Shown here one piece after another: positions 15,985 through 58,606 of a stretch of 64,000 nucleotides of DNA. The first letter of the stretch is position 1. Each line of letters opens with the position of its first letter. Where the stretch lies: the NCBI RefSeq assembly GCF_024521635.1, contig NW_026250405.1, positions 1,116,001-1,180,000 on the forward strand, given 5' to 3'. The notes under the pieces were generated by a model that saw only the letters and a program-made list of their open reading frames with translations, did no database searches and had not been told where the DNA came from. This stretch comes from Tricharina praecox. Lineage: Eukaryota. Position numbers and translations under genes: made by a program.

Positions 15985-18900
15985 ACCAACAACTGCTTGA
16001 TGGCACCGTTGTTGGTCGTACCCAGGATAAGTCTTTTTCTCCCTTTTCTACTCATTTTCGTTTGTCCAATTTGTCAGTGTCTGGGATGGTAGTGGAGGAA
16101 TCATCAATGGAAGGAAAACATCTCGTTGTACTATGTAACCTTTCGTTTGGTGACAAAACCATTGCCACGCATGCGCTGATCGATTGTGGAGCAACCGGAA
16201 TCGCCTTTGTAGATAAAGACTTCGCCCGCCATCACAACCTACCCCTTGTACCCCTTGAATCCCCGCGCGCCCTTGAGGTCATCGACGGCCGCCCCATCGA
16301 GTCCGGCGACATCACACACGTTGCCACCACCACCCTGTCAATCCAAGAGCACCACGAAGAACTCCCAATGTTCGTCACCAAACTGGGGCACTACCCAATC
16401 GTACTCGGAATTCCCTGGATGGACCTACACGACGTGGCCATCCGATTCAGCTCACGCACCCTCACCTTTGGTTCCCAATATTGCACAGCACACTGCAATA
16501 CGGTACCCACAGTAGCCCACGGTATCACCACAGACCCACCGGAACTACCTTACGCTCTCGCACCATACGTAGCTCTGGAGGAGCCAGCGGTAAGCGCGGG
16601 GGCCGGCGACATCGTGGCCCGATGCGTTACGTCTCCAGAGATCAATGAACACCAGCAGGATGCTAACCAGAGAAAACCCACGGTCAGAATCTCAGCCCTC
16701 CGAATGAAGCCTTTCCAGCAGATGGCAGGAAAGGAGAACCTCACCATCTTCACCACGACCCTGAGGGAGATCAATGAAGTTCTATCTGAAGAAAAACAGA
16801 GCTCAACCGCCCACATTCCCCCCGAATATCACGAATTTCTCCACCTCTTCTCCGAAAGGTTGGCGCAGATCCTACCACCCCATCGGCAATACGACCACAA
16901 GATCCCACTAAAGGAAGGATTTGTGCCCCCTTACGGACCCCTCTATTCGCTCTCGAAAACCGAGCTGGTCGCACTCAAGGAATGGCTTGACGACAATCTG
17001 AGCAAGGGATTTATCCGTGTGTCCTCATCACCAGCGGCATCACCGATCCTGTTTGTCAAAAAATCGGACGGCTCCTTGCGACTGTGTGTGGACTATCGAG
17101 GCCTGAACGAAGGAACCATCAAGAACCGCTACCCACTTCCCCTGCTCCAGGAAACCTTGATGCGACTGTCCGGTGCAAAGTATTTCACAACACTGGATAT
17201 CCGCGGTGCTTACAACCTGGTACGAATGGCAGAAGTGGAGGAATGGAAAACGGCCTTCCGGACCCGCTACGGACTTTTCGAATCATTGGTAATGCCTTTC
17301 GGGCTAACCAATGCGCCAGCCGACTTCCAAGCCTTGATCAACGACGTTTTACGACCGTTCCTGGACGACTTCTGTACCGCCTTCCTAGATGACGTCTTTA
17401 TCTACAGCGCATCACTGGAAGAACACCAAAAAGAGGTCACCAAAGTGCTACGCGCCCTTTCATCGGCCGGACTGCACTTAAAACCGGAGAAATGCCACTT
17501 CCACCAGACGGAGGTCAAATACCTGGGCCTGATCATAACCACGGAGGGTATTAAGATGGATCCTGCCAAAGTCTCTTGCGTACTCGAATGGGAAAAACCG
17601 ACGACGGTAACGGATGTGCAATGTTTCTTGGGCTTTGCGAACTTCTACCGACGCTTTATCCAGGACTACTCTAAGGTGGTATCTCCCCTGACGGCAATGA
17701 CAAAAAAGGAAAATGGGAAGTACGTCCCCTTCGAATGGGGTATTGACCAACAGCAAGCCTTCGACACTCTCAAGACTGCCTTCACTACTGCCCCGATACT
17801 CCGACATTTCGACTACGACCGAGAAATAGTGGTGGAAACTGATGCCTCGGATTACGTATCGGCCGGTATTCTCTCCCAGTACGACGACGATGGAATCTTG
17901 CATCCGGTTGCCTTCTATTCAAAGAAACACTCCCCGGCGGAATGCAATTACGAAATCTACGACAAAGAATTGTTGGCAATCATTCGGGCCTTTGAGGAAT
18001 GGAGACCACACCTTGAAGGAGCCGCGCACCCGATCCAAGTCCTGAGCGATCACAAGAACTTGGAATACTTCATGTCAACCAAGTTGCTCAACCGCCGGCA
18101 AGCACGATGGTCGGAATTCCTGTCCCGTTTCGACTTCAAAATTGTCTATCGACCTGGTAAAGCAGGAGGGAAACCGGATGCATTGACAAGGAGGTCAGGA
18201 GACCTCCCTAAGGAGGGGGATGAAAGACTGCTGGCAAACCAACAAGCAGTCCTCAAGCCCCAAAACCTGCCGGAAGAATTGAGATTGTCAGCAACCAACC
18301 CGTTGGAAGTACCCCGTCCCGCACTCTCTACCCTGATAACCGAAGCATATCAGGCAGATCCAGCACCGAACAAGATCCTCCAACTGCTCAGAAACGGAAC
18401 ACGCCACTCCAAGGACATCTCGCTCGCCGATGTCACGGCACGGTCGGGCATGGCTCCAGGTAGCGAAGTCGGGCTGGGGATCGGGTTCTGGGTTCGGTAG
18501 AGGCAAGACATGTTCAGGGGACAAGATGAGGCAGGACTCAGTGCAGACGGCAACTGAGAACAGAGGCAGGGACAAGGACTACGGCGCAGACGGCAGCCGA
18601 GGCAAGGACAGAGGTAACAGTGATTGAATTAACAAGTTGTTGCGTGAAGAACTAAATACAGAGGGGCAACGGCCCGTTTATATAGAAAATCCTCCACTTC
18701 TTCCCGCAACCTGACAATGACCGTGGGCGTGTGCCAGACCCTGAGAAATCCACCTTGCCAGTACCCCACTTCCGTGACTCATACCCTGCGCAGCCGCACT
18801 ACCCCTGTTTCCTGCACACAGCCCCAATCTCCTGCGGCTCATTGCTGCGCTATCCCTGCTCCCTGCACACAGCCCCAAATCCTCTGCGACTCATCCTTGC

Positions 18901-20043
18901 ACTGCCGGTGCACTGCCTCTGCACTGCCCCCCAACTCTCCCGATCCTTGTGCCGACCCTCCCTTCGTCATTCCATCGCGAGCCGTGACAGCCGACTGCAG
19001 CGAAGTCAACGGACAATTACATTACCGCGGTTGCCTCTACGTTCCTGAACACGACCCACTCAGACTTCGCCTGATCCAGGACCACCACGACCCGCCGGCT
19101 ATGGGCCATCCCGGAAGAGCAAAAACCTTGGAACTCCTGGCCCGGAACTACTACTGGCCCCAGATGCGGAAGGACGTTGACCGATTCGTGAGGAACTCCC
19201 ACACTTGCAGACGAACCAAAGCAACAAGACACGCCCCCTACGGTGTGCTCCGCCCACTCCCAGTACCCGAGAAACCCTGGCAACATATATCCATCGACTT
19301 CGTAACCGGACTCCCTCCCTCAAAAGGATTCGATGCCATTTGCGTATTTGTGGACCGCCTCCTATGCGATATTTGAAGCCCACGGCCACCCACACATTGC
19401 TGATGCGCCGCAAATCCATCCGTCGTCGCTGCAGTCACCAAGCAACGACAGCTGCTCCCCTGCAACACGACCATCACCTCCGAGGGACTCGCCGAACTGT
19501 TCTGCGATCGGATCTTCAGATACCACGGACTACCTGACACCATCGTACCGGACAGGGGCCCCCAGTTTGCCTCACGATTTTGGAAAGATCTATGCTCTTG
19601 CCTCAAGATCGACGCACGGCTTGCCACAGCGTTCCACCCGCAGACAGACGGTCAAACAGAGAGGATGAATGCGGTAATGGAACAACACCTCCGGGCATAC
19701 GTGAGCTACCTGCAGGACGACTGGGTCGACTACCTATTCTTAGCAGAGTTCGCTGGCAACAACCAGGCATCCGACACCACTACCCTGTCCCCGTTTTTTG
19801 CTAACCTAGGCTACCACCCCCGTTGCGACTTCGAGCTTGACATCCGAACCGACACGAACGAAGAGCGACAGGCGCAGACAGCGGCAGAGCGACTCCAGCA
19901 GATCCACGACGTTGCCCGAAGTGAGATGCGCTACGCCCAAGCACGGCAGCAGGACAACATGGACCAGCACCGAACCCCCGCACCGGCCTTCCAGCCTGGA
20001 GATATGGTATGGGTGGACGGCCGAAACTGCCGGACGGAGCGAC
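15972..20043 (+). pseudogene. pol: Pol of E1 (-1 frame relative to gag), disrupted
   Basis: LIDCGAT protease, [11 protein letters not shown] / [10 protein letters not shown] / FLDD RT, ETDASD RNase H, integrase zinc finger and core. Broken by a solo LTR (18431-18989), a 75-bp insert (19362-19436) and a C LTR at 20044. Confidence 0.93.
18431..18989 (-). mobile_element. Solo family-A2 LTR (559 bp), antisense inside E1 pol
   Basis: TG...CA ends; 5-bp TSD GCCGA at 18426-18430 and 18990-18994; pol resumes (ADCSEVNG...). Confidence 0.96.
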
Positions 20044-21288
20044 TGTGAGACTGGAACGATTTCGGTCGTCGGAGCCGATTGATAGAATGGGGTTTAGAAT
20101 GAAAATAGATAGTATTCTTTTCACAAGCGGAATAATCTTAAGGGGTAGTGTCGATGGTTTTCTGGTTGCTGATTCTGATGATGAATCTTTCGCCGTGTCG
20201 TCGGAAGTCTATATAGTTGGGTGTGAGACTGGAACGAGTTTGTGTCGTCGGAGTCTATGGTAATATCGAGTGCAGAATAAAAGTCAGGGATTTCGATAAT
20301 TCACAACGGAATAATCTTAAGGGTGTTTCTTCGATGGTTTGTTCGGTGCGATGATTGTGGTTTGGTTCGGTTTGCCTGCTCGGTTCGACTTATAGTCGTT
20401 CCGATCCTCAGCACGTGATTCCTCTAGAGTGCGGCCTAACGTAGCTCCGTTGCTTCCTTTGCATCGGAGTTCCGCGGCCTAGCCTCGAGTCGTCGTCAGC
20501 TCTCTTCGGATAGTCTTCTCGACTAGGCAGGTGGTAAACACCACGCGCCCAAGATAGATCGGAGTTTCCGAGCAATTATCTCCCTCATGCGCCGGCAGAG
20601 TTCTTCGCTCGAAGTTGTCTGCCCCCATCGGTCGATGTTCGATTCTCTCGTCATAACAGTTTTTCCCTGGATCGGAGTTCCTACTGCGGGGCCCTATGAA
20701 CGGAGATCTCAAAGTCCTCTGGACTGTTATCCCGATCTCCCGTATCTCCGATCACTGTCTAGACTCTGGAATCCGTTTGCTCCCTCCTTCCTATCTTGTC
20801 CTCGATCGCTTCTAACTATCCTTTCGGCTCGCAACTCTATTCTAATCACCCGGACTATCTAATCACATCTCTTGCGAACGTCGTGTCCTCCGATAGCTAT
20901 CGGGGTGTCACATTGGGTGATTTGGTCGGGTCACGTGCCAGCCGTTGCCGTAGCTTGTTGCCGGATGGAACCCTGGCGTGAAATCTCTGCACCTGGTGCG
21001 GAGACTTTCTCCGCCATGTCATCAGAGTCGTCGTAAGCCTTCAGGATAGTTTATACAAACTAGGCAGGTATGGCGCACCAATCCTTACCCGAGCATAGTC
21101 CGGTTTCAGCTATCTTTTCGCTGGGCAACGGCCGCGCCTTTCGGCACGGCTCTTATTTGCTTAAGACGCGAGAAGAGAGGCAACACTCGTCATAGTGGTT
21201 TTTCTCCGATCAGAGTTTTTCTCTGCGTTTGTTCGCGATTCGCCTGCCTCAAGTCGAGCATGACTGTATCGGACTTTTCGTGTGTATC
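20044..21288 (-). mobile_element. Family-C LTR (partial), split by a solo B LTR and ended by the mini-element
   Basis: TGTGAGACTGGAACGATT start; 20044-20221 plus 20913-21288 match the reverse complement of LTR 57819-58555. Confidence 0.92.
20222..20912 (-). mobile_element. Solo family-B LTR (691 bp)
   Basis: TGTGAGACTGG...GGGGTGTCACA; TSD TTGGG at 20217-20221 and 20913-20917. Confidence 0.96.
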
Positions 21289-21659
21289 TGTAATACAGTA
21301 CACTGGGAAAGTACTATACCACTCGACCAAAAGGTATTTTGATGGCTGATGGCCATCATCCCAGTAGCTACTTAAAGCCGGATTTCTGAACTGTGACAGT
21401 ATCCCCTCTTTAGGGGCTTACTCCAGGAAGCCTTCAAGTAGTTAACCCCCAATGAGTGATAATTCATGATAGGAATCATGAACCGTCACTCACTGTAAGC
21501 CATGCAATTCCTGAACAACGCTGCAGCAGAGGAATGTAACTGCTCGCAGTGAAAATTGAACTCATGACCTTTGCAGCCATCAAACTGTAATAAAGTACAC
21601 TGGGAAAGTACTATACCACTCGACCAAAAGGTATTTTGATGGCTGATGGCCATCATCCC
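21289..21659 (-). mobile_element. Non-coding mini LTR retroelement (TRIM-like); 5' LTR cut by E2
   Basis: 110-bp TG...CA repeat at 21289-21398; second copy at 21586-21659 (one mismatch in 74 nt); 187-bp internal region; minus-strand PPT AAAGAGGGGATAC abutting the 3' LTR. Confidence 0.85.
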
Positions 21660-22067
21660 TGTAACGGCACGGTCGGGCAAGGCTCCAGGTAGCGAAGTCG
21701 GGCTGGGGAACGGGTTCTGGGTTCGGTAGAGGCGAGACGGGTTCGGGGAACAAGGTGAGGCAGGGCTCAGTGCAGACGGCAACTGAGAACAGAGGCAGGG
21801 ACAAGGACTACGGCGCAGACGGCAGCCGAGGCAAGGACAGAGGTAACAGTGGTTGAATTAACAAGTTGTTGCGTGAAGAACTAAATACAGAGGGGCAACG
21901 GCCCGTTTATATAGAAAATCCTCCACTTCTTCCCGCAACCTGACAATGACCGTGGGCGTGTGCCAGACCCTGAGAAATCCACCTTGCCAGTACCCCACTT
22001 CCGTGACTCATACCCTGCGCAGCCGCACTACCCCTGTTTCCTGCACACAGCCCCAATCTCCTGCGAC

Positions 22068-25000
22068 TCATTGCTGCGCTATCCCTGCTCCCTGCACACA
22101 GCCCGAAATCCTCTGCGACTCATCCTTGCACTGCCGGTGCACTGCCTCTGCACTGCCCCCCAACTCTCCCGATCCTTGTGCCGACCCTCCCTTCGTCATT
22201 CCATCGCGAGCCGTGACAGTAGTCCCTCCTAAGGCTCGAGTTCCCACGAGAGCAAGTTCGACTGGTCCAGGCTGCATGGGGTATCGTCGATGGAAGTCGT
22301 CCACAGCTTGTACCTCGGTAAGGTTCTCCTCTGGTTCCCATGTTGGTGCCGCGTAGCCTCTCCATTTCACCAGGTACTGGAGTTTGCCCCTGAGGTTCCG
22401 GCTGTCGAGGACCTCTTCAACCTCCCATTCTTCTTGGTCGTCCACGATTACCGGAAGTGGTGGCGGTGGAATTTGTCCAGGGAAGGGATCGTCAGCGGAG
22501 GCATGAAGGAGGGATACAGGAAATGTTCGGTGCTTCTGAACGGTGTCCGGGATGTCCAATTCGTAGGCGTGGGTTCCGATTATCCGAATCACACGGTAGG
22601 GACCATGGTGTTTGTTTTCCAGCTTGCGACTGGGTCTCTCGGTGCGCCAGTTCCGACCATCCACCCATACCATGTCGCCTGGTTGGAAGGCTGGCGCAGG
22701 GGTTCGGTGTCGGTCGGAGTCGTCCTGTTGCCGTGCCTGGGCATACCGCATTTGGCTGCGGGCGACGTCGTGGATTTGATGCAACCGTTCCGCTGCACTC
22801 TGAGCTTGATGTTCCTCCTTGGTGTCGACACGGATATCCAGCTCAAAGTCACACCGTGGGTGGTATCCTAGGTTAGCGAAGAATGGGGACAGGGTAGTCG
22901 TGTCGGAGACCTGGTTGTTGCCGGCGAATTCGGCCAAGAAGAGGTAGTCGACCCAGTCATCCTGGAGGTAGCTGACGTACGCACGGAGGTGCTGTTCCAT
23001 GACGGCGTTCATCCGTTCGGTTTGGCCGTCGGTCTGGGGGTGGAAGGCAGTTGACAGGCGTGGCTCGATCTTGAGGCATGAGCATAGGTGTTTCCAGAAT
23101 CTCGAGGCAAACTGGGGACCCCTATCCGAGACGATGGTTTCTGGCAACCCGTGGTACCTGAAGATCCGGTCGCAGAACAGCTCGGCCAGTCCTTCCGAGG
23201 TGATGGTCGTGGTACATGGTAGGAGATGGCGTTGCTTGGTCAGTCGGTCAACAAAAACACAGATGGCGTCAAACCCCTTTGAGGCCGGTAAGCCAGTGAC
23301 AAAGTCGACTGAGATGTGTTGCCATGGCTTCTCGGGTACTGGGAGGGGGCGCAGGACACCATAGGGTGCGTGCCGGGTGGCCTTGGTTCGTCGGCAGGTG
23401 TGGCAGTTTCGGACAAACTGGTCAACGTCCTTTCGCATCTGTGGCCAGTAGTACCTTCGAGCAAGTAGTTCCAGGGTTTTTGCGCGCCCTGGGTGCCCCA
23501 TGGTCGGTGGGTCGTGGTGGTCCTGGATCAGTCGTAGTCGGAGTCGGTCGTACTCTGGAACATAGAGGCAGTCTCGGTAGATCAGTCGCCCGTTGACTTC
23601 ACGGCATTCGGCCAAAGAGATCTCCTTCGAGTGGCGTGTACCATTTCGGAGTAGCTCGAGGATTCGATTTGGGACGGGGTCTATGTCGTAGCCTTCTGTT
23701 ATCAGTGACGTGAGGAGGGGACGGTCTTGTTCGGGTGTGTTGGTTGCTGCCAACCGGAGCTCTTCCGGTAGGTTATCCGGTTTCAGGACTGCCTGCTGGT
23801 TGGCAAGCAGTCTTTCATCCCCTTCTTTAGGGAGGTCTCCTGACCTCCTGGTCAGTGCATCCGGTTTTCCTCCCGCTTTGCCTGGTCGGTAGACAATCTT
23901 GAAATGGAAACGGGAAAGGAACTCTGACCATCGCGCTTGTCGTCGGTTGAGTAGTTTCGTTGTCATGAAATACTCCAGATTCTTGTGGTCGCTTAGGACT
24001 TGGATGGGGTGAGGAGCGCCCTCCAGGTGTGGTCTCCACTCCTCAAAGGCGCGGATGATTGCAAGGAGTTCTTTGTCATAGATCTCGTAGTTGCATTCTG
24101 CCGGGGAGTGTTTCTTGGAATAGAATGCCACTGGGTGCAGGATTCCCTCGTCGTCGTACTGAGATAGGACTCCGGCAGAGACGTAGTCGGAGGCGTCAGT
24201 TTCCACTACTATCTCCCGATCGTAGTCGAAGTGCCGGAGGATCGGGGCCGAAGTGAATGCTGTTTTTAGTTCGTCGAATGCTTTCTGCTGTTCCGGTCCC
24301 CACACGAAGGGAACATACTTTCCATCCTCCTTCTTGGTCAATGCTGTCAATGGGGATACCACCTTGGAATAGTCTTGGATGAATCGCCGGTAGAAGTTCG
24401 CAAATCCCAGAAAGCATTGCACATCGGTGACGGTACTCGGCTCCTCCCATTCCAGTATGCAGGAGACTTTCGATGGGTCCATCTTGATCCCGTTTGTTGT
24501 AATGATCAGTCCCAAATACTTGACTTCCGTCTGGTGGAAATGACATTTTTCGGGTTTGAGATGCAGACCGGCTGCTGATAAGGCCTGAAGTACTTTCCTG
24601 ACATGTTTCCGGTGTTCATCTAAGGATCCGCTGTAAATGAAGACGTCGTCGATGAATGCGGTACAGAAGTCGTCGAGGAACGGGCGTAGCACATCATTGA
24701 TCAGAGCTTGGAAGTCGGCAGGGGCGTTGGTGAGGCCGAAGGGCATGACGAGGGATTCGAAGAGCCCATAGCGTGTCCGGAAGGCAGTTTTCCACTCTTC
24801 TCCTTCCGCCATCCGCACAAGGTTGTAGGCACCACGGATATCCAGGGTAGTGAAGTATTTTGCCCCGGATAGCCGCATCAGAGTTTCTTGGAGGAGTGGG
24901 AGTGGGTACCTGTTCTTGATTGTTCCTTCGTTCAGGCCCCTGTAATCCACACACAGGCGTAGGGAGCCGTCCGATTTCTTGACAAACAGGATTGGCGATG

Positions 25001-26070
25001 CTGCTGGAGAGGAAGAGGCACGGATGAAACCTTTGCGGAGGTTGTCGTCAAGCCATTCCTTCAGTGCGACAAGCTCCGTTTTCGAAAGTGAGTACAGGGG
25101 TCCGTATGGGGGCGTAAATCCCTCCTTGAGTGGAATCTTATGGTCGTAGTGTCGGTGCGGGGGCAGGTTCTGGGCAAGGGCTTCAGAGAATAGCGGTAGG
25201 AACTCGTGGTATTCGTGAGGGATATGTGCCGTGGGGTCCTTGTTTCCTTCCAGTGCGCCGTTGACCTCGGCAAGCGTGGTGTTGAAAATCGTGAGGCTTT
25301 CCTTGTTGACCAGTTCTTGGAATGACTCCATCTGTAAGGCTGAGATTCTGACTGTGCTTTCCCTTGAAAGGTTAGTGCATTCTTGGTGATTCTTCCTTGG
25401 GGGAGACGTAATGTAGCGGGCCACGATGTCGCCGGCCCCCGCGCTTACCGCTGGCTCTTGCTGAGCTGCTTTTGACGCGAGAGCATAGGTGGATACGTCA
25501 GGTGGGTCGGTGGTGATTCCATGTGCAACTGTGGGCACCGCATTGCAGTTGGCTGTGCAGTATTGGGAGCCGAAGGTGAGGGTTCGGGAGCTGAACCGGA
25601 TGGCCACATCGTGGAGGTCCATCCAGGGGATTCCGAGTACAACGGGGGTAGTGGCCTAGTTTGGTGACAAACATAGGGATTTCCTCGTGGTGTTCCTGTA
25701 TGGACAGGGTGGTGGTGGCAACATGTGTGATGTCGCCTGACTCGATGGGACGGCCATCGATGACTTCGAGACTTCGCGGGGATTTCAGGGGTACGAGGGG
25801 TAGGTGGTGATGGCGGGCGAAGTCTTTGTCTACAAATGCAATTCCGGTTGCCCCACAGTCGATCAGCGCATGCGTGGCAATAGTTTTGTCACCAAACGAA
25901 AGGTTACACAATACAACAAGATGTTTTCCTTCCATTGATGATTCTTCCACAACCATTCCTGACACTGAAAGACTAGACAAACGAAAAATAGGGGACATAG
26001 GAGACAAAGACTTATCCTGGGTACGACCAACAACAGTGCCATCAAGCGGTTGTTGGTCTAGGCTTTTCCC
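22068..26070 (-). CDS. pol: Pol of E2 (PR-RT-RH-IN-chromodomain); single +1 indel in a G run near 25645
   Basis: ORFs 25498-26094 and 22068-25622; FIDD, HHCC finger, GPY module, [29 protein letters not shown]; the frame continues 150 nt into the 3' LTR. Confidence 0.9.
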
Positions 26071-27293: not shown

Positions 27294-30200
27294 TGTAACG
27301 GCACGGTCGGGCAAGGCTCCAGGTAGCGAAGTCGGGCTGGGGAACGGGTTCTGGGTTCGGTAGAGGCGAGACGGGTTCGGGGAACAAGGTGAGGCAGGGC
27401 TCAGTGCAGACGGCAACTGAGAACAGAGGCAGGGACAAGGACTACGGCGCAGACGGCAGCCGAGGCAAGGACAGAGGTAACAGTGGTTGAATTAACAAGT
27501 TGTTGCGTGAAGAACTAAATACAGAGGGGCAACGGCCCGTTTATATAGAAAATCCTCCACTTCTTCCCGCAACCTGACAATGACCGTGGGCGTGTGCCAG
27601 ACCCTGAGAAATCCACCTTGCCAGTACCCCACTTCCGTGACTCATACCCTGCGCAGCCGCACTACCCCTGTTTCCTGCACACAGCCCCAATCTCCTGCGA
27701 CTCATTGCTGCGCTATCCCTGCTCCCTGCACACAGCCCCAAATCCTCTGCGACTCATCCTTGCACTGCCGGTGCACTGCCTCTGCACTGCCCCCCAACTC
27801 TCCCGATCCTTGTGCCGACCCTCCCTTCGTCATTCCATCGCGAGCCGTGACAGTAGTCCCTCCTAAGGCTCGAGTTCCCACGAGAGCAAGTTCGACTGGT
27901 CCAGGCTGCATGGGGTATCGTCGATGGAAGTCGTCCACAGCTTGTACCTCGGTAAGGTTCTCCTCTGGTTCCCATGTTGGTGCCGCGTAGCCTCTCCATT
28001 TCACCAGGTACTGGAGTTTGCCCCTGAGGTTCCGGCTGTCGAGGACCTCTTCAACCTCCCATTCTTCTTGGTCGTCCACGATTACCGGAAGTGGTGGCGG
28101 TGGAATTTGTCCAGGGAAGGGATCGTCAGCGGAGGCATGAAGGAGGGATACAGGAAATGTTCGGTGCTTCTGAACGGTGTCCGGGATGTCCAATTCGTAG
28201 GCGTGGGTTCCGATTGTCCGAATCACACGGTAGGGACCATGGTGTTTGTTTTCCAGCTTGCGACTGGGTCTCTCGGTGCGCCAGTTCCGACCATCCACCC
28301 ATACCATGTCGCCTGGTTGGAAGGCTGGCGCAGGGGTTCGGTGTCGGTCGGAGTCGTCCTGTTGCCGTGCCTGGGCATACCGCATTTGGCTGCGGGCGAC
28401 GTCGTGGATTTGATGCAACCGTTCCGCTGCACTCTGAGCTTGATGTTCCTCCTTGGTGTCGACACGGATATCCAGCTCAAAGTCACACCGTGGGTGGTAT
28501 CCTAGGTTAGCGAAGAATGGGGACAGGGTAGTCGTGTCGGAGACCTGGTTGTTGCCAGCGAATTCGGCCAAGAAGAGGTAGTCGACCCAGTCATCCTGGA
28601 GGTAGCTGACGTACGCGCGGAGGTGCTGTTCCATGACGGCGTTCATCCGTTCGGTTTGGCCGTCGGTCTGGGGGTGGAAGGCAGTTGACAGGCGTGGCTC
28701 GATCTTGAGGCATGAGCATAGGTGTTTCCAGAATCTCGAGGCAAACTGGGGACCCCTATCCGAGACGATGGTTTCTGGCAACCCGTGGTACCTGAAGATC
28801 CGGTCGCAGAACAGCTCGGCCAGTCCTTCCGAGGTGATGGTCGTGGTACATGGTAGGAGATGGCGTTGCTTGGTCAGTCGGTCAACAAAAACACAGATGG
28901 CGTCAAACCCCTTTGAGGCCGGTAAGCCAGTGACAAAGTCGACTGAGATGTGTTGCCATGGCTTCTCGGGTACTGGGAGGGGGCGCAGGACACCATAGGG
29001 TGCGTGCCGGGTGGCCTTGGTTCGTCGGCAGGTGTGGCAGTTTCGGACAAACTGGTCAACGTCCTTTCGCATCTGTGGCCAGTAGTACCTTCGAGCAAGT
29101 AGTTCCAGGGTTTTTGCGCGCCCTGGGTGCCCCATGGTCGGTGGGCCGTGGTGGTCCTGGATCAGTCGTAGTCGGAGTCGGTCGTACTCTGGAACATAGA
29201 GGCAGTCTCGGTAGATCAGTCGCCCGTTGACTTCGCGGCATTCGGCCAAGGAGATCTCCTTCGAGTGGCGTGTACCATTTCGGAGTAGCTCGAGGATTCG
29301 ATTTGGGACGGGGTCTATGTCGTAGCCTTCTGTTATCAGTGACGTGAGGAGGGGACGGTCTTGTTCGGGTGTGTTGGTTGCTGCCAACCGGAGCTCTTCC
29401 GGTAGGTTGTCCGGTTTCAGGACTGCCTGCTGGTTGGCAAGCAGTCTTTCATCCCCTTCTTTAGGGAGGTCTCCTGACCTCCTGGTCAGTGCATCCGGTT
29501 TTCCTCCCGCTTTGCCTGGTCGGTAGACAATCTTGAAATGGAAACGGGAAAGGAACTCTGACCATCGCGCTTGTCGTCGGTTGAGTAGTTTCGTTGTCAT
29601 GAAATACTCCAGATTCTTGTGGTCGCTTAGGACTTGGATGGGGTGAGGAGCGCCCTCCAGATGTGGTCTCCACTCCTCAAAGGCGCGGATGATTGCAAGG
29701 AGTTCTTTGTCATAGATCTCGTAGTTGCATTCTGCCGGGGAGTGTTTCTTGGAATAGAATGCCACTGGGTGCAGGATTCCCTCGTCGTCGTACTGAGATA
29801 GGACTCCGGCAGAGACGTAGTCGGAGGCGTCAGTTTCCACTACTATCTGCCGATCGTAGTCGAAGTGCCGGAGGATCGGGGCCGAGGTGAATGCTGTTTT
29901 TAGTTCGTCGAATGCTTTCTGCTGTTCCGGTCCCCACACGAAGGGAACATACTTTCCATCCTCCTTCTTGGTCAATGCTGTCAATGGGGATACCACCTTG
30001 GAATAGTCTTGGATGAATCGCCGGTAGAAGTTCGCAAATCCCAGAAAGCATTGCACATCGGTGACGGTACTCGGCTCCTCCCATTCCAGTATGCAGGAGA
30101 CTTTCGCTGGGTCCATCTTGATCCCGTTTGTTGTAATGATCAGTCCCAAATACTTGACTTCTGTCTGGTGGAAATGACATTTTTCGGGTTTGAGATGTAG

Positions 30201-33441: not shown

Positions 33442-36400
33442 GTAGCCCCTCCTAAGGCTCGAGTTCCCACGAGAGCAAGTTGAACTGGTCCAGGCTTCGT
33501 TGGGTAACGTTGGTGGAAGTCGTCCACTGCCTGTACGTCCACAAGGTTCTCCTCAGGTTCCCACGTCGGTGCCGTGAAACCCCCCTTGACTAGGTACTGG
33601 AGTCTTCCCCTCAGCGTTCTGCTGTCCAGCACTTCCTCCACCTCCCATTCTTCTTGGTCGTTCACAATTACCGGTAACGGTGGCGGCAGGATCTGGCCGG
33701 GGGGGGGTCGGCCGATGCATGGAGGAGGGACACTGGGAAGGTGCGGTGCTTTTGGATGGTGTTCGGGATGTCCAGTTCGTATGCGTGGGTTCCGATGGCT
33801 CGGGTAATCCGATAGGGTCCGTGGTGTTTGTTTTCCAGTTTTCGGCTTGGTCGCTCCGTCCGCCAGTTTCGGCCGTCCATCCATACCAAGTCTCCAGGCT
33901 GGAAGGCCGGTGCGTGGGTTCGGTGTGAGACTGGAACGATTTCGGTCGTCGGAGTCGATTGATAGAATAGGATAAGAATGAAGATAGATAGTATTCTTTC
34001 TTTCACAAGCGGAATAATCTTAAGGGGTAGTGTCGATGGTTTTCTGGTTGCTGATTGTCATGATGAATCTTTTGCCGTGTCGTCGGAAGTCTATATAGTT
34101 GGGTGATTTGATCGAGTCACGTGCCAGCCGTTGCCGTAGCTTGTTGCCGGATGGAAACCCTGGCGTGAAATCTCTGCACTTGGTGCAGGAGACTTTCTCC
34201 GCCATGTCATCAGAGTCGTCGTAAGCCTTCAGGATAGTTTATACAAACTAGGCAGGTATGGCGCACCAATCCTTACCCGAGCATAGTCCGGTTTCAGCTA
34301 TCTTTCGCTGGGCAACGGCTGCGCCTTTCGGCACGGCTCTTATTTGCTTAAGACGCGAGAAGAGGGGCAACACTCGTCATAGTGGTTTGTCTCCGATCAG
34401 AGTTTCTCTGCGCTTGTTTCGCGATTCGCCTGCCTCAAGTCAAGCATGACTGTATCGGACTTTTCGTGCGTATCGCTGCGCCTCCGATCCCACCTAGACT
34501 CTGGTTCCGTTTGCTTCGGTGCCGGTCCGTGTTGTCCTGCTGCCGTGCTTGGGCGTAGCGCATCTCACTTCGGGCAACGTCGTGGATCTGTTGGAGTCGC
34601 TCTAGCCGCTGTCTGCGCCTGTCGCTCTTCGTTCGTGTCGGTTCGGATGTCAAGCTCGAAGTCGCAACGGGGGTGGTAGCCTAGGTTAGCAAAAAACGGG
34701 GACAGGGTAGTGGTGTCGGATGTCTGGTTGTTGCCAGCGAACTCTGCTAAGAATAGGTAGTCGACCCAGTCGTCCTGCAGGTAGCTCACGTATGCCCGGA
34801 GGTGTTGTTCCATTACCGCATTCATCCTCTCTGTTTGACCGTCTGTCTGCGGGTGGAACGCCGTGGAGAGCCGTGCGTCGATCTTGAGGCAAGAGCATAG
34901 ATGTTTCCAAAATCGTGAGGCAAACTGGGGGCCCCGGTCCGATACGATGGTGTCGGGTAGTCCGTGGTATCTGAAGATCTGATCGCAGAATAGTTCGGCG
35001 AGTCCCTCAGAGGTGATGGTCGTGTTGCAGGGGAGCAGGTGTCGTCGCCTGGTGAGGCGGTCCACAAATACGCAAATGGCATTGAATCCTTTTGAGTGAG
35101 GAAGCCCGGTGACGAAGTCGACGGAGATATGTTGCCAGGGTTTCTCAGGTACTGGGAGTGGGCGGAGCACACCGCAGGGGGCGTTTCTTGTTGCTTTGGT
35201 CCGTCTGCAAGTGTGGCAGTTTCTCACGAATCTCTCAACGTCCTTCCGCATGTGGGGCCAGTAGTAGTTCCGGGCCAGGAGTTCCAAGGTTTGTGCGCTT
35301 CCGGGATGGCCCATAGCAGGTGCGCTGCGGTGGTCCTGGATCAGGCGAAGTCTGTGTGGGTCGTGTTCAGGAACGTAGAAGCAATCGCGGTAATGTAATT
35401 GTCCGTTGACTTTGCTGCAGTCAGCGAGCGAGATGTCCTTCGAGTGGCGTGTTCGGTGTCTGAGCAGTTGGAGGATCTTCTTCGGCCGTGGATCTGCCTG
35501 ATATGCTTAGGTTATCAGGGTAGAGAGTGCGGGACGGGGTACTTCCAGCGGGTTAGTCGCTGACAATCTCAATTCTTCCGGCAGGTTTTGGTGCTTGAGG
35601 ACTGCTTGTTGGTTCGCCAGCAGTCTTTCATCCCCCTCCTTAGGGAGGTCTCCTGACCTCCTTGTCAATGCATCCGGTTTCCCTCCTGCTTTACCAGGTC
35701 GATGGACGATTTTGAAGTCGAAACGGGACAGGAATTCCGACCATCGTGCTTGCCGGCAGTTGAGCAACTTGATTGACATGAAGTATTTCAAGTTCTTATG
35801 TTTGTTCAGCACTTGGATCGGGTGCGCAGCTCCTTCAAGGTGTGGTCTCCATGCTCAAAGGCTCGAACAATCGCCAACAATTCTTTGTCGTAGATTTCGT
35901 AATTGCATTCCGCCGGGGAGTGTTTCTTTGAATAGAAGGCAACTGGATGCAAGATTCCATCGTCGTCGTACTGGGAGAGGATACCGGCCGATACGTAATC
36001 CGAGGCATCAGTTTCCACCACTATTTCTCGGTCGTAGTCGAAATGTCGGAGGATCGGGGCGCTAGTGAAGGCAGTCTTGAGAGTGTCGAAGGCTTGCTGT
36101 TGGTCAATACCCCATTCGAAGGGGACGTACTTCCCATTTTCCTTTTTGTCATTGCCGTCAGGGGAGATACCACCTTAGAGTAGTCCTGGATAAAGCGTCG
36201 GTAGAAGTTCGCAAAGCCCAAGAAACATTGCACATCCGTTACCGTCGTCGGTTTTTCCCATTCGAGTACGCAAGAGACTTTGGCAGGATCCATTTTAATA
36301 CCCTCCGTGGTTATGATCAGGCCCAGGTATTTGACCTCCGTCTGGTGGAAGTGGCATTTCTCCGGTTTTAAGTGCAGTCCGGCCGATGAAAGGGCGCGTA

Positions 36401-39400
36401 GCACCTTGGTGACCTGTTTTCGGTGTTCTTCCAGTGACGCGCTGTAGATAAAGACGTCATCTAGGAAGGCGGTACAGAAGTCGTCCAGGAACGGTCGTAA
36501 AACGTCGTTGATCAGGGCTTGGAAGTCGGCTGGCGCGTTGGTTAGCCCGAAAGGCATTACCAATGATTCGAAAAGTCCGTAGCGGGTCCGGAAGGCCGTT
36601 TCCATTCCTCCCCTTCTGCCATTCGTACCAGGTTGTAAGCACCGCGGATATCCAGTGTTGTAAAATACTTTGCACCGGACAGTCGCATCAAGGTTTCCTG
36701 GAGCAGGGAAGTGGGTAGCGGTTCTTGATGGTTCCTTCGTTCAGGCCTCGATAGTCCACACACAGTCGCAAGGAGCCGTCCGATTTTTTGACAAACAGGA
36801 TCGGTGATGCCGCTGGTGATGAGGACGCACGATAAATCCCTTGCTCAGATTGTCGTCAAGCCATTCCTTGAGTGCGACCAGCTCGGTTTTCGAGAGCGAA
36901 TAGAGGGGTCCGTAAGGGGGCACAAATCCTTCCTTTAGTGGGATCTTGTGGTCGTATTGCCGATGGGGTGGTAGGTTCTGCGCCAACCTTTCGGAGAAGA
37001 GGTGGAGAAATTCGTGATATTCGGGGGGAATGTGGGCGGTTGAGCTCTGTTTTTCTTCAGATAGAACTTCATTGATCTCCCTCAGGGTCGTGGTGAAGAT
37101 GGTGAGGTTCTCCTTTCCTGCCATCTGCTGGAAAGACTTCATTCGGAGGGCTGAGATTCTGACCGTGGGTTTTCTCTGGTTAGCATCCTGCTGGTGTTCA
37201 TTGATCTGGGGAGACGTAACGTATCGGGCCACGATGTCGCCGGCCCCCGCGCTTACCGCTGGCTCCTCCAGAGCTACGTTTGGTGCGAGAGCGTAAGGTA
37301 GTTCCGGTGGGTCTGTGGTGATACCGTGGGCTACTGTGGGTACCGTATTGCAGTGTGCAGTGCAATATTGGGAACCAAAGGTGAGGGTGCGTGAGCTGAA
37401 TCGGATGGCCACGTCGTGTAGGTCCATCCAGGGAATTCCGAGTACGATTGGGTAGTGCCCCAGTTTGGTGACGAACATCGGGAGTTCTTCGTGGTGCTCT
37501 TGAATTGACAGGGTGGTGGTGGCAACGTGTGTGATGTCGCCGGACTCGATGGGGCGGCCGTCGATGACCTCAAGGGCGCGCGGGGATTCAAGGGGTACAA
37601 GGGGTAGGTTGTGATGGCGGGCGAAGTCTTTGTCTACAAAGGCGATTCCGGTTGCTCCACAATCGATCAGCGCATGCGTGGCAATGGTTTTGTCACCAAA
37701 CGAAAGGTTACATAGTACAACGAGATGTTTTCCTTCCATTGATGATTCCTCCACTACCATCCCAGACACTGACAAATTGGACAAACGATAATGAGTAGAA
37801 AAGGGAGAAAAAGACTTATCCTGGGTACGACCAACAACGGTGCCATCAAGCAGTTGTTGGTCTAGGCTTTTCCCGACTGTCCCTTGGTTGTCGCCACAAT
37901 TCTGGTTGCAATTGTGGTATGGGTGGTCGGGTGGTCAGGGTTCCAGGTTGCTCGTGCGTCAGCTGTGCAGCTGCGGCACGGAAAGGGTTCCGATTCTTGT
38001 TCGGGCAGTGTCGGGCCATGTGGCCACTGCCTCCACAGTATAGGCAGCGACCCTCGCGGAGACGCGCAGCTCGTTCTTGATCAGAGATCTTGCGACTGTT
38101 CGCGCTGAGGTCCATAGCCCCTGGGGCTGTTCCGGTTGCAGTGGTTGCCGGTGGTGTACTGTTATGGCGTTTGATTCCTCGGCGGAGCTGGGGGTTGCGG
38201 GGTGGGGTTTTGTCGCGGGGGGTTGCGGCGGCCTTCACGGAGTTGGAGGGCACGTAGCTCGGAATCGAGGCTCTGGCAGAGAGCCACGAACTGGTTGTAG
38301 GTGAGTCCCTGAGTGCGGCCCACCAGTTGTCGGTGGAGCTCGATGGAGACTCCTTCGCGGAGTGCGTCGAGTTTGGCATGTTCGTCCCTGTTCAGCTTGG
38401 ACACAGGCCTTTGAAACTCTGCAAAGTAAGACGTAAAGTCCTTGTTCCCTTGCTTGAGGCGGTGGAGTTCGACGCGTGCCGTGGCCGCTGGGTCGGGATC
38501 GCCAAAGGAGTTTTCGAGATTGGTGACCATGGCATCGGCGTAGCTCAAGCTGATCAGGTTGTTCTGGATATACGGCAGTATCCGGGCTTGGGCAGGCGTT
38601 TGAGACGGTTCAAGGTGTAGGCCATTCTGAGTGCTGCGGACAGGAAACAGGTAGGGTCACTGTACAGTTTGAGTCGAAGCTGGGCAACGAACCCTTCAAG
38701 ATTCTCTCGAATGCCATGGAACATGGCTGGCTCTGGGATGCGCTCGGCGCGGCCCTGGGGTTGGGTTTCTTGTGTGGCGAGACGGTTGACGATACGGCGG
38801 GAGTTGGCAAGTTGTTCTTCGAGGTCGTCTACTCGCCAGGTGGGTGCTGCTGTGGGGGATTGGGTGATTGCACGGCCTATGATTTGGAACTGGTCATACA
38901 ACCCCAACAGAGTCGCAACGTCGGCGGGGGAGTCCTGGTTGACGATGATCCCAAGTTGTTCGTAGATGGTGGCAGGAATTTCTCGATAGTAGGGGGGTGC
39001 CACCAGTACTTCCTCCTGCTGGGGAGGGTGTGGTGCTGGATTGTTGGTGGCCATGGTTCTTCGCTAGGTGGAGAGATAGGCGACGCAACAAAGTGTAACA
39101 GCACGGTCGGGCAAGGCTCCAGGTAGCGAAGCCGGGCTGGTAATCGGGTTCTAGGTTCGGCAAAGGCAAGACGGGTTCAGAGGACAAGGTGAGGCAGGGC
39201 TCAGTGGAGACGGCAACTGAGAACAGAGGCAGGGACAAGGACTACGGCGCAAACGGCAGCCGAGGCAAGGACAGAGGTACCAGTGATTGAATTAACACGT
39301 TGTTGCGTGAAGAACTAAATACAGAGGGGCAACGGCCCGTTTATATAGGAAATCCTCCACTTCTTCCCGCAACCTGACAATGACCGTGGGGGTGTGCCAG

Positions 39401-39653
39401 ACCCTGAATAATCCACCTTGCCAGTACCCCACTTCCGTGACTCATACCCTGCGCAGCTGCACTACCCCTGCTTCCTGCAGCCAGCCCCAATCTCCTGCGG
39501 CTCATTGCTGCGCTATCCCTGCTCCCTGCACACAGCCCCCAATCCTCTGCGGACTCATCCTTGCACTGCCGGTGCACTGCCTCTGCACTGCCCCCCAACC
39601 CTCCCGATCCTTGTGCCGACCCTCCCTTCGTCATTCCATCGCGAGCCGTGACA
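32933..39653 (-). mobile_element. E4: family-A1 element, array unit 3, degenerate
   Basis: Gag and pol match E1 (QQEEVLVAPP, PPEYHEFLHLFSER, FLDD); many indels and stops; LTRs 32933-33441 (509 bp, A1 U3) and 39094-39653 (560 bp, A2 U3). Confidence 0.95.
33924..34517 (-). mobile_element. Truncated solo family-C LTR in E4 integrase
   Basis: TGTGAGACTGG start; TTCGG at 33919-33923 and 34515-34519; about 140 bp of the LTR end is missing; host sequence resumes seamlessly. Confidence 0.92.
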
Positions 39654-42600: not shown

Positions 42601-45288
42601 CAAGTTCTGGGCAAGGGCTTCAGAGAATAGCGGTAGGAACTCGTGGTATTCGTGAGGGATATGTGCCGTGGGGTCCTTGTTTCCTTCCAGTGCGCCGTTG
42701 ACCTCGGCAAGCGTGGTGTTGAGAATCGTGAGGCTTTCCTTGTTGACCAGTTCTTGGAATGACTCCATCTGTAAGGCTGAGATTCTGACTGTGCTTTCCC
42801 TTGAAAGGTTAGTGCATTCTTGGTGATTCTTCCTTGGGGGAGACGTAATGTAGCGGGCCACGATGTTGCCGGCCCCCGCGCTTACCGCTGGCTCTTGCTG
42901 AGCTGCTTTTGACGCGAGAGCGTAGGTGGATACGTCAGGCGGGTCGGTGGTGATTCCATGTGCAACTGTGGGCACCGCATTGCAATTGGCTGTGCAGTAT
43001 TGGGAGCCGAAGGTGAGGGTTCGGGAGCTGAACCGGATGGCCACATCGTGGAGGTCCATCCAGGGGATTCCGAGTACAACAGGGTAGTGGCCTAGTTTGG
43101 TGACAAACATAGGGATTTCCTCGTGGTGTTCCTGTATGGACAGGGTGGTGGTGGCAACATGTGTGATGTTGCCTGACTCGATGGGACGGCCATCGATGAC
43201 TTCGAGACTTCGCGGGGATTTCAGGGGTACGAGGGGTAGGTGGTGATGGCGGGCGAAGTCTTTGTCTACAAATGCAATTCCGGTTGCCCCAGAGTCGATC
43301 AGCGCATGCGTGGCAATAGTTTTGTCACCAAACGAAAGGTTACACAATACAACAAGATGTTTTCCTTCCATTGATGATTCTTCCACAACCATTCCTGACA
43401 CTGAGAGACTAGACAAACGAAAAATAGGGGACATAGGAGACAAAGACTTATCCTGGGTACGACCAACAACAGTGCCATCAAGGTGTTGTTGGTCTAGGCT
43501 TTTCCCGACTGCTGGGAGGTCTCGCCGCAATCCTGATTGCAGTTGTGATAGGTGTGAGTCGGGGTGGTGTTGGTGGGCTGGGCTGACTCCAACCGGGCAA
43601 CAGCTGCTTGGAACGGATTTCGGTTCTTGTTGGGGCAGTGCCTGCCCATGTGGCCACTTCCCCCACAGTACAGGCAGCGGCCTTCGCGGAGCCGGGCAGC
43701 ATGCTCTTGGTCTGGGATCCTGCGGCTATTGGCACTCAAGTCCATGGCTCCGGGGGCCGTTCCTGTGGCAGTGGTCGTCGCGGGCATGGTGTTGTGGGTG
43801 GTGTGCCTGAGCGGCGCCGTCGGGTGTATGGCGCTTCTCTGCCGAGGGGGGTTGGTGGTGCGGCGTCCCTCACGAAGTTGGAGGGCACGCAGCTCGGAGT
43901 CAAGGCGTTGACAGAGGGCCACAAACTCATCGTAGTTGAGTCCCTGAGTACGGCCCACAAGTTGCCAGTGGAGTTCGATGGATACTCCTTCTCGCAGCGC
44001 GTCAAGTTTCGCATGCTCGTCCCAATTGAGCTTGGAGACAAGCATCTGGAATTCCACAAAGTAGGAGGTGAACTCCTTATTGCCTTGTTTCAGGTGGTGT
44101 AGCTTGGCTCGAGCGGTGGCCGCTGGGTCAGGGTCACCAAATGCGTTGTTCAGGAGTGTGATGATCGCATCAGCGTCGGTGAGGGTGATGTTGTGATTCT
44201 CGATGTACGGCAGGATCTGGGCTTGGGCGCGGCCTTCCAAGCGGTTGAAGGCATAGGCTATTCGGAGTGCTGGAGTTGGGAAACGGGCTGGGTCGCTGTA
44301 CAGCTTGAGTCCAAGTTGCGCAACGCACCCTTCCAGTTTCTTGCGTGTTCCGTCGAACATGGCTGGCTCTGGGACACGCTCAGCGCGGCTTTGAGGTTGG
44401 GTTTCGACGGTTGCGAGGCGGTTGGCGATGCGGCGGGCGTCAGCAAGTTGTTCTTCGAGGTCGTCGAATCGCCAGGTCGGTACGGCTATTGGGAACTGGG
44501 TGATTGCGCGGGCGAGGATTCTGAATTCATTGTACAACCCCATCAGGGTTGCATCATCGGCGGGTACATCATGATTGACGATGATCTCGAGTTGTTCGTA
44601 GATAGCGGCAGGAATTTCTCGGTAGAAGGGGGGTGCCACTGGTACTTCGTCCTGCTGGGGGACGCCAGGTACCTGAGTGTTGGTGGCCATGGTAGTTCGC
44701 TAGGTGGAGAAATAGGGGACGCAACAAAGTGTAACGGCACGGTCGGGCAAGGCTCCAGGTAGCGAAGTTGGGCTGGGGATCGGGTTCTGGGTTCGGTAGA
44801 GGCAAGACGAGTTCAGGGGACAAGGTGAGGCAGGACTCAGTGCAGACGGCAACTGAGAACAGAGGTAGGGACAAGGACTACGGCGCAGACGGCAGCCGAG
44901 GCAAGGACAGAGGTAACAGTGGTTGAATTAACAAGTTGTTGCGTGAAGAACTAAATACAGAGGGGCAACGGCCCGTTTATATAGAAAATCCTCCACTTCT
45001 TCCCGCAACCTGACAATGACCGTGGGCGTGTGCCAGACCCTGAGAAATCCACCTTGCCAGTACCCCACTTCCGTGACTCATACCCTGCGCAGCCGCACTA
45101 CCCCTGTTTCCTGCACACAGCCCCAATCTCCTGCGACTCATTGCTGCGCTATCCCTGCTCCCTGCACACAGCCCCAAATCCTCTGCGACTCATCCTTGCA
45201 CTGCCGGTGCACTGCCTCTGCACTGCCCCCCAACTCTCCCGGTCCTTGTGCCGACCCTCCCTTCGTCATTCCATCGCGAGCCGTGACA
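39094..45288 (-). mobile_element. E5: family-A2 element, array unit 4
   Basis: LTRs 39094-39653 and 44730-45288; pol has a frameshift near 42285 and a CGA>TGA stop at 40823-40825. Confidence 0.95.
43494..44690 (-). CDS. gag: Gag of E5 (398 aa)
   Basis: Intact ORF, near-identical to E2 Gag. Confidence 0.92.
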   Translation of the reverse strand: MATNTQVPGVPQQDEVPVAPPFYREIPAAIYEQLEIIVNHDVPADDATLMGLYNEFRILARAITQFPIAVPTWRFDDLEEQLADARRIANRLATVETQPQSRAERVPEPAMFDGTRKKLEGCVAQLGLKLYSDPARFPTPALRIAYAFNRLEGRAQAQILPYIENHNITLTDADAIITLLNNAFGDPDPAATARAKLHHLKQGNKEFTSYFVEFQMLVSKLNWDEHAKLDALREGVSIELHWQLVGRTQGLNYDEFVALCQRLDSELRALQLREGRRTTNPPRQRSAIHPTAPLRHTTHNTMPATTTATGTAPGAMDLSANSRRIPDQEHAARLREGRCLYCGGSGHMGRHCPNKNRNPFQAAVARLESAQPTNTTPTHTYHNCNQDCGETSQQSGKA

Positions 45289-54499: not shown

Positions 54500-55229
54500 T
54501 TCGATAGAAATCGGTGACTGTAACCTTTAAGATTATAGTGTGAGACTGGGACGGGTTTGTCTCGTCGGAGTCAATAGTAAAGTCGAGGATAGAATAAAAG
54601 TCAGGGATTTCGATAATTCAGAACGGAATAATCTTAAGGGTGTTTCTTCGATGGTTTGTTTGGTGCGATGATTGTTGTTGGGTTCGGTTTGCCTGCTCGG
54701 TTTGACTTATAGTGGTTCCGATCCTCAGCACGTGATTCCTCTAGAGTGCGGCCTAACGTAGCTCCGTTGCTTCCTTTGCATCGGAGTTCCGTGGCCTAGC
54801 CTCGAGTCGTCGTCAGCTCTCTTCGGATAGTCTTCTCGACAAGGCAGGTGGTAAACACCACGCGCCCAAGATAGATCGGAGTTTCCGAGCAATTATCTCC
54901 CTCATGCGCCGGCAGAGTTCTTCGCTCGAAGTTGTCTGCCCCCATCGGTCGATGTTTGATTCTCTCGTCATAACAGTTTTTCCCTGGATCGGAGTTCCTA
55001 CTGCGGGGCCCTATGATCGGAGATCTCAAAGTCCTCTGGACTGTTATCCCGATCTCCCGCATCTCCGATCACTGTCTAGACTCTGGAATCCGTTTGCTCC
55101 CTCCTTCGTATCTTGTCCTCGATCGCTTCTAACTATCCGTTCGTCTCGCAACTCTATTCTAATCACCCGAACTATCTAATTACATCTCTTGCGACCGTCG
55201 TGTCCTTCGATAGCTGTCGGGGTGTCACA

Positions 55230-57818: not shown

Positions 57819-58606
57819 TGTGACACCCTGGTCGCAGTTGGCCCGGCTTCAGGGTTCGGCTTCTTACCAACGGAAGTTCGGCAAAAATAGTTAGATAGAT
57901 CGGGGAGCAGGAGGAAAACCTTTAGATTAGTCGTAGCTAGTCGGAGACGAGATAGGAAGGAAGGAAGCAAACGGAACCAGAGTCTAGGTGGGATCAGAGG
58001 CGCAGCGATGCGCACGAAAAGTCCGATACAGTCATGCTCCACTTGAGGCAGGCGAATCGCGAACAAGCGCAGAGAAAACTCTGATCGGAGAAAAACCACT
58101 ATGACGAGTGTTGCCCCTCTTCTCGCGTCCCAAGCAAATAAGAGCCGTGCGGAAAGGCGCAGCCGTTGCCCAGCGAAGAGATAGCTGGCACCGGACTATG
58201 CTCGGGTAAGAATTGGTGCGCCATACCTGCCTAGTTAGTATAAACTATCCTGAAAGCTTACGGCGACCCTGATGACATGGCGCAGGAAGTCTCCGCACCA
58301 AGTGCAGAGATTTCATGTTCGGGCTTCAATCCGGCAACAAGCTACGGCAACGGCTGGCACGTGACCCGACCATATCACCCAACTATATAGACTTCCGACG
58401 ACATGGCGAAAGATTCATCATCAGAATCAGCAACCAGAAAACCATCGACACTACCCCTTAAGATTATTCCGCTTGTGAAAAGAAGGCTATCTATTTTCAT
58501 TCTAAACCCCATTCTATCAATCGACTCCGACGACCGTAATCGTTCCAGTCTCACACTATAATCTTAAGAAAAATCGATCCTTTTCTAAAGAATTACCACC
58601 TACGAA

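Follow-up and report, generated by a model that had tools for sequence, protein, structure and literature searches.

We propose that a short stretch of minus-strand DNA is probably a copy, now dead, of a very small, non-coding, TRIM-like LTR retrotransposon that primed its own reverse transcription in the manner of Tf1/sushi elements and was mobilised by A-type chromoviruses. It lies within the 64-kb stretch of DNA that was analysed here, which we call the window. Read on the minus strand, this mini-element consists of a truncated upstream LTR, a short interior and a complete downstream LTR, and it lies between a host LTR on one side and a family A LTR on the other. Its parts and its two neighbours are the following, with positions counted from the first letter of the window:

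21289..21659, minus strand: the mini-element, 371 bp present, presumably 407 bp when whole.
21289..21398, minus strand: complete 3' (downstream) LTR, 110 nt, TGTCAC...ATTACA, a direct repeat.
21586..21659, minus strand: truncated 5' (upstream) LTR, 74 nt, equal to LTR positions 37-110.
21399..21585, minus strand: non-coding interior of 187 nt, in which PBS, PPT and a spacer G (21585) are counted.
21574..21584, minus strand: PBS, TTTGATGGCTG, the exact 11-nt complement of an LTR word, one base past the 5' LTR.
21399..21411, minus strand: PPT, AAAGAGGGGATAC, adjoining the TGTCAC of the 3' LTR.
21369..21376, minus strand: TATA-like motif of putative function, TTTAAGTA, LTR positions 23-30, in the 3' LTR copy only.
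21338..21348, minus strand: self-primer word CAGCCATCAAA of the 3' LTR, LTR positions 51-61.
21635..21645, minus strand: self-primer word CAGCCATCAAA of the 5' LTR, the putative first bases of the element RNA.
21450..21495, minus strand: imperfect hairpin of ~20 bp with G-U pairs, found by repeat search and also part of the minimum-energy fold.
20913..21288: part of the host 'C' LTR, 96% identical to 34099-34474.
21660..22218, minus strand: family A LTR that cuts the mini-element, the first LTR of a tandem array.

The original prediction had described two 110-bp LTRs, the second cut after 74 nt, around a 187-bp interior without an ORF of its own, and this anatomy was reproduced. A repeat search pairs 21288-21366 with 21585-21663 as direct repeats, and the LTR copies themselves (21289-21362 and 21586-21659) differ at a single one of 74 positions. 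No gag/pol similarity of the interior was found in comparison with the proteins of the window (best blastx E 0.9), and the frames that lie wholly inside it span only 23 to 44 aa from stop to stop. The TATA-like motif, which had been placed about 20 nt before the LTR word, ends 20 nt upstream of it in the 3' LTR. The G+C content of the mini-element is 44%, compared with 54% for the window.

Among the features by which TRIMs are recognised, the mini-element has terminal direct repeats in the range of ~100-250 bp, a whole length below 1000 bp, a non-coding interior and a PPT before the 3' LTR. As regards a tRNA-type PBS, there is no TGG directly past the LTR; a TGG stands at offset 7, and the window is without tRNA genes. 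What the element has is the hallmark of Tf1/sushi self-priming, a PBS that stands one base past the LTR and is complementary, at all of its 11 nt, to the element's own LTR. The gag and pol genes with chromodomain that characterise an autonomous Tf1/sushi chromovirus are absent from the mini-element and present in the neighbouring family A. Two further repeats were noticed in the LTR. A perfect 10-nt palindrome, GATGGCCATC, occupies 21351-21360 and 21648-21657, immediately 5' of the putative transcript start, and the 7-mer GCCATCA is tandemly repeated beside it and overlaps the primer word.

The mini-element sits in a 595-bp 'C' LTR, 43 bp before the end of that LTR. The outer edge of its 3' LTR (21288/21289) coincides with the exact break of the 'C' LTR homology, as seen against the two other copies of this LTR, and the continuation, 34475-34517 in one of them, is missing at the 21288 side. 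A host LTR broken off so exactly, to the base, bears the mark of an insertion and not of a local duplication. At the other end, positions 1-36 of the upstream LTR, the TATA-like motif included, have been removed where the family A LTR starts (21660), and because of this loss the present copy is dead. The missing outer 36 nt have no match elsewhere in the window; since they and their flank are absent from it, no target-site duplication can be read. The pentamer GTATC (plus strand) at 21284-21288, in the host LTR, is identical to 21399-21403 at the PPT end (GATAC on the minus strand), and this match on both sides of the 3' LTR may be a coincidence or may reflect microhomology at integration.

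The surroundings are rich in related elements, the window from 13.7 to 64 kb being a nest of Ty3/gypsy chromoviruses. Besides the mini-element, the following members are referred to here:

21660-45288, minus strand: family A tandem array with five LTRs and four internal regions.
21660-22218, 27294-27852, 32933 to about 33441 (shortened), 39094-39653 and 44730-45288: the five LTRs of the A array.
47.2-55.2 kb: coding element B.
From 57.96 kb, plus strand: coding element C.

The pol ORF of family A encodes reverse transcriptase (RT), RNase H, integrase, an SH3 domain of Tf2 type and a chromodomain; its match to the structure of Ty3 Gag-Pol has an E value of 3e-129. The best relatives of a flanking AMP-binding gene fragment are found in Agaricales fungi (39-44% identity). 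The first two LTRs of the A array are identical except at 1 of 559 positions. The flanks outside the array (ATCCC and GTCCT) form no target duplication, and ends unmatched in this way point to two insertion sites joined by recombination, which suggests that the array has grown or been joined by LTR recombination. Solo LTRs nearby retain their 5-bp duplications, namely TCGGC around a family A LTR at 18431-18989, inside an inverted A element, and CCCAA around a family B LTR at 20223-20912, inside the 'C' LTR. The third internal region of the A array contains an inserted 595-bp 'C' solo LTR (33923-34517), and the inverted A element shows the empty site of this insertion at 19968-19974, with an overlap of about 5-7 nt. 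Just 3' of the stop codon of family A gag, at about 26034-26049, lies a conserved local inverted repeat of 10-11 nt that has paralogues near 16000, 31670, 37840 and 43475; it may be a gag-pol read-through or frameshift signal.

Central to our reading is the PBS, which had been claimed to be the exact 11-nt complement of a word in the element's own LTR, with no canonical TGG, and which proved to be so. The primer/PBS pairing of Tf1 is 11 nt as well. In the 64 kb, the 11-mer or its complement occurs three times, always inside the mini-element (the PBS and both LTR copies), where 0.03 occurrences would be expected, and none of 100 shuffles reached three. When a 15-nt stretch was compared with the preceding 110 nt as a chance control, an exact complement of 11 nt was found at 5 of 18,250 positions sampled on both strands (0.03%). 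A full scan for complements of at least 10 nt returned about eleven loci in the window, three of them where LTR and PBS meet in the mini-element, in B and in C, the rest inside LTR retroelements.

The neighbouring families show the same design. In family A, ACGCAACAA forms a 9-nt pair with TTGTTGCGT at all four 5'-LTR junctions, ~30 nt past TATATAAA; family B has a 10-nt PBS/LTR pair at its one 5' junction and family C a pair of 11 nt. At four control junctions other than 5' LTR/interior, the complement did not exceed 7 nt. All 12 A-like LTR copies, some of them only ~80% identical, keep the primer word of family A intact, and all 6 junctions keep its PBS 9-mer. Judged from sequence, self-complementary priming is the local rule among the families of the window, matching the literature on Tf1/sushi elements, and the presence of this design in A, B and C makes self-priming of the mini-element credible. 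As a separate observation, B (54529-54538) and C (about 58557-58567) have a common self-primer word, TTAAGATTAT, and a PBS beside their 5' LTRs, despite LTRs that are only ~74% alike over the first 120 nt.

The minus-strand termini had been described as nearly those of family A. Indeed, the LTRs of both start with TGTCAC and end with TTACA, whereas the termini of B and C differ (TGTGAC...CTCACA). The likeness that had been noted between the PPTs also held, AAAGAGGGGATAC standing at the place where family A has AGGAGGGACTAC. The inner edge of the mini-element LTR, set by TGTCAC and the PPT, is akin to the family A junction, and over the 27 nt of the PPT/LTR junction its identity to the family A junctions is 78-81% (21/27). 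The PBSs of the two elements are in the same register and agree at 7 of 11 positions; at three of the four positions that differ, the LTR of each element carries the matching complement, which restates that each keeps its own pairing. Beyond the 27-nt junction of LTR edge and PPT, neither the LTR body nor the interior matches anything else in the window, A, B and C included, in agreement with the earlier description of the LTR body as unrelated to these families. The LTR is also about one fifth as long as those of the nearby autonomous elements (110 nt versus 559-692 nt). Given the A-like termini, PPT and PBS and the differing termini of B and C, we take the likely helper to be an A-type chromovirus.

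The predicted RNA structure is consistent with self-annealing. The 81-nt leader folds with -26.4 kcal/mol (z -3.6; none of 200 shuffles as good), and the 11-bp primer/PBS duplex is the closing stem of its minimum-energy fold, enclosing two hairpins. The 247 nt of minus-strand RNA that extend between primer word and PPT are predicted to be almost wholly paired, the hairpin at 21450-21495 included, with -91.7 kcal/mol and z -6.7 (again 0 of 200 shuffles as good). The plus strand of the same region reaches -70.5 kcal/mol and z -3.5, a poorer fold, as would be expected if G-U pairs count on the sense strand. Control windows of 247 nt, taken on both strands at 36 positions between 501 and 37,251 (n=72), gave a mean z of 0.18 (sd 1.13) with a minimum of -2.9; computed by this script, z was -5.4 for the mini-element and -4.5 for its interior when the PBS was left off. 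The 241-nt leader of family A shows no unusual structure (z -0.32; 75 of 200 shuffles fold as well), so that strong structure is no general mark of self-priming in these elements. Rfam returned no family and only matches to miRNA models with E above 2, a mere reflection of the hairpins.

A three-duplex 'pretzel' leader is described for Tf1-type elements in PMC10085805. Its two side duplexes, which adjoin the PBS, can be drawn for the mini-element with 6 bp each, but 661 and 826 of 1000 shuffles gave equal length. A 6-bp pairing of the bases after the primer with those after the PBS was also considered as a pseudoknot and was discarded, since a linker of 1 nt is too short to bridge an 11-bp helix.

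In the mechanism that we propose, the RNA would begin within the 5' LTR, at CAGCCATCAAA or beside it and about 28 nt from where the TATA-like motif starts, which would give a U3 of 50 nt and an R-U5 of 60 nt. Its first 11 bases would fold back on the PBS, one base past the LTR, as both the complementarity and the predicted fold suggest. On the model of Tf1, RNase H activity of the helper RT would then cut off the 5' segment, which would prime the synthesis of minus-strand DNA, and the PPT before the 3' LTR would prime the plus strand. The helper integrase would recognise the TGTCAC...TTACA ends that the element has in common with family A; Gag, RT and integrase would all be supplied in trans by an A-type chromovirus. 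As to the history of the locus, we read it as an insertion of the mini-element into the 'C' LTR and a later one of a family A element into the mini-element, with recombination within the array removing the outer 36 nt together with the flank.

Other explanations of the locus have to be weighed against this reading. It could be a one-off internal-deletion derivative of an autonomous chromovirus with 110-nt LTRs that is absent from the window, from which it would have inherited its self-priming signals. Deletion derivatives of LTR elements are common, and both the single copy in the window and the lack of relatives among the metagenome contigs, viral contigs and proteins of 31-100 aa that were searched would fit such an origin. 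However, the interior holds no coding remnant (the blastx E of 0.9 being the best), the LTR is only about one fifth as long as the nearby autonomous LTRs, and the interior RNA is more structured than any of the 72 controls, with a bias to the sense strand. A chance remnant of leader and pol would not be expected to be so structured, and we consider this origin unlikely, though it keeps some weight.

Far less probable is a tRNA-primed LTR element whose true PBS would be the TGG-starting TGGCTGCAAAGG... found 7 nt past the LTR, the 11-nt self-complement being incidental. Besides the TGG near the LTR end, this explanation can appeal to the tRNA primers of described TRIMs, the typical state of affairs also in the original prediction and in three papers (PMC6934838, PMC3532108, PMC10886601). 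However, 7 nt is a long offset for a tRNA site, an exact self-complement of 11 nt is very unlikely to arise by chance, and the PBS is in register with the self-complementary sites of A and B, which have no TGG. Nor is there a tRNA-like sequence or tRNA gene in the window: ARAGORN found no tRNA at its default, 95% and intron settings, and no Rfam tRNA match was obtained in the mini-element at E values up to 10. The idea of a tRNA-like LTR, as in the fungal TRIMs named Helenus, was likewise abandoned; a match at the LTR/interior junction appeared at the 80% threshold of ARAGORN, where the background is 52 per 64 kb, and a match at background rate does not make this a Helenus-type TRIM. Hardly more credible, and if anything slightly less so, is that the locus was never mobile and is a 297-bp unit duplicated locally in tandem, later cut by family A, with PBS- and PPT-like motifs by chance. 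As the second repeat is truncated, 1.25 units and an LTR-interior-LTR order are the same thing on repeat evidence alone. What distinguishes them are the outer repeat edge, which falls exactly at the break of the 'C' LTR and carries a TG/CA-type terminus, the family A-like inner LTR edge and PPT, the 11-nt complement adjoining the repeat edge, and the G+C content of 44% against 54% for the window, all of which argue against a duplication.

A self-priming, TRIM-like element with an A-type helper is the reading that we prefer. Its earlier interpretation as a minimal parasite of self-priming chromoviruses is supported in part, namely for the small LTR-element anatomy, the PBS complementary to its own LTR, the A-like termini and PPT and the neighbours of self-complementary design. 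The 64-kb window contains one copy, which is truncated, and a single broken copy gives the case the weight of a lead only. A scan of metagenome contigs with a 22-mer of the LTR hit a single locus with a bare 22-nt match, which was rejected as a relative because the rest of the element and of the window is unmatched there, as expected of a chance hit. Viral contigs contained 0 matches to the primer-gap-PBS pattern and 0 to a 23-mer, and a collection of proteins of 31-100 aa offered no candidate for the 57-aa frame that runs through LTR, PBS and interior.

More tentatively, we speculate that the copy represents a dedicated family of ~400-bp protein-less retroelements that carry their own primer. 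Such a family would be a TRIM of the Tf1/sushi lineage that uses the Gag, RT/RNase H and integrase of a helper, its primer and PBS having diverged from those of the A-type helper and yet stayed complementary, and its RNA being compact and almost fully paired. If this is true, the RNase H of the helper would accept a foreign self-primer duplex for nothing but its shape, and self-priming retrotransposons, like tRNA-primed ones, would have miniature parasites. A parasite with its own primer would show that the Tf1-like RNase H self-priming step can act in trans on unrelated sequence. TRIM finders that require a tRNA-type PBS would miss a class of fungal elements, and the case argues for a test of self-complementarity in the LTR and TRIM annotation of fungal genomes.

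The claim of novelty made in the original prediction holds in one respect and has to be tempered in another. In full-text searches of the literature, no description emerged of a self-priming site in an LTR element that is miniature or non-autonomous. The combination is, however, to be expected from known TRIMs and known self-priming: since fungal TRIMs are known and self-priming is usual in Tf1/sushi elements, it is a corollary of the two. Self-priming is the rule in Tf1/sushi chromoviruses (PMC10085805, PMC6317226), and self-primed members include Tf1, Tf2, Tj1, Tosmo1-3, Maggy, Skippy and others (PMC10085805, PMC4600332, PMC6934838). A paper on bivalve TRIMs mentions self-priming only as a possibility for other elements (PMC6934838). 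TRIMs are routinely annotated in basidiomycetes (PMC5689174).

Known miniature elements give a scale for the one described here. The SMART elements of plants represent an extreme miniaturisation of an LTR retrotransposon, as does the mini-element, in another lineage. They are non-autonomous LTR elements of 292 bp and are mentioned in PMC10886601. That paper presents Helenus as fungal TRIMs of 311-583 bp with tRNA-like LTRs and 5-bp duplications, which occur also in Agaricomycetes; Helenus-1_HemVas, with an LTR of 116 bp and an interior of 79 bp, totals 311 bp (PMC10886601). Three k-mers of the mini-element were absent from one supplementary file of that paper. Helenus resembles the mini-element in its size class, its fungal host and its lack of coding capacity, but differs in the type of primer and in the tRNA-like sequence of its LTR, which the mini-element LTR does not have.

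In comparison with TRIMs in general, the mini-element agrees in its length below 1 kb, in terminal repeats of ~100-250 bp, in an interior that begins with the PBS and ends with the PPT, and in its presumed mobilisation in trans. It differs in that the primer sites of TRIMs, in the descriptions consulted, match a tRNA, either its 3' end or, in the fungal Helenus, an anticodon-loop half, whereas the site of the mini-element matches its own LTR. With the Tf1/sushi chromoviruses it has in common a PBS just past a 5' LTR that ends in CA, the complementarity of this PBS to an LTR word downstream of a TATA-like motif, a primer/PBS stem that encloses a U5 stem-loop in the predicted fold, and chromovirus neighbours of the same design. 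From these it is set apart by encoding nothing, by an LTR of only 110 nt and by 'pretzel' side duplexes that are not above chance.
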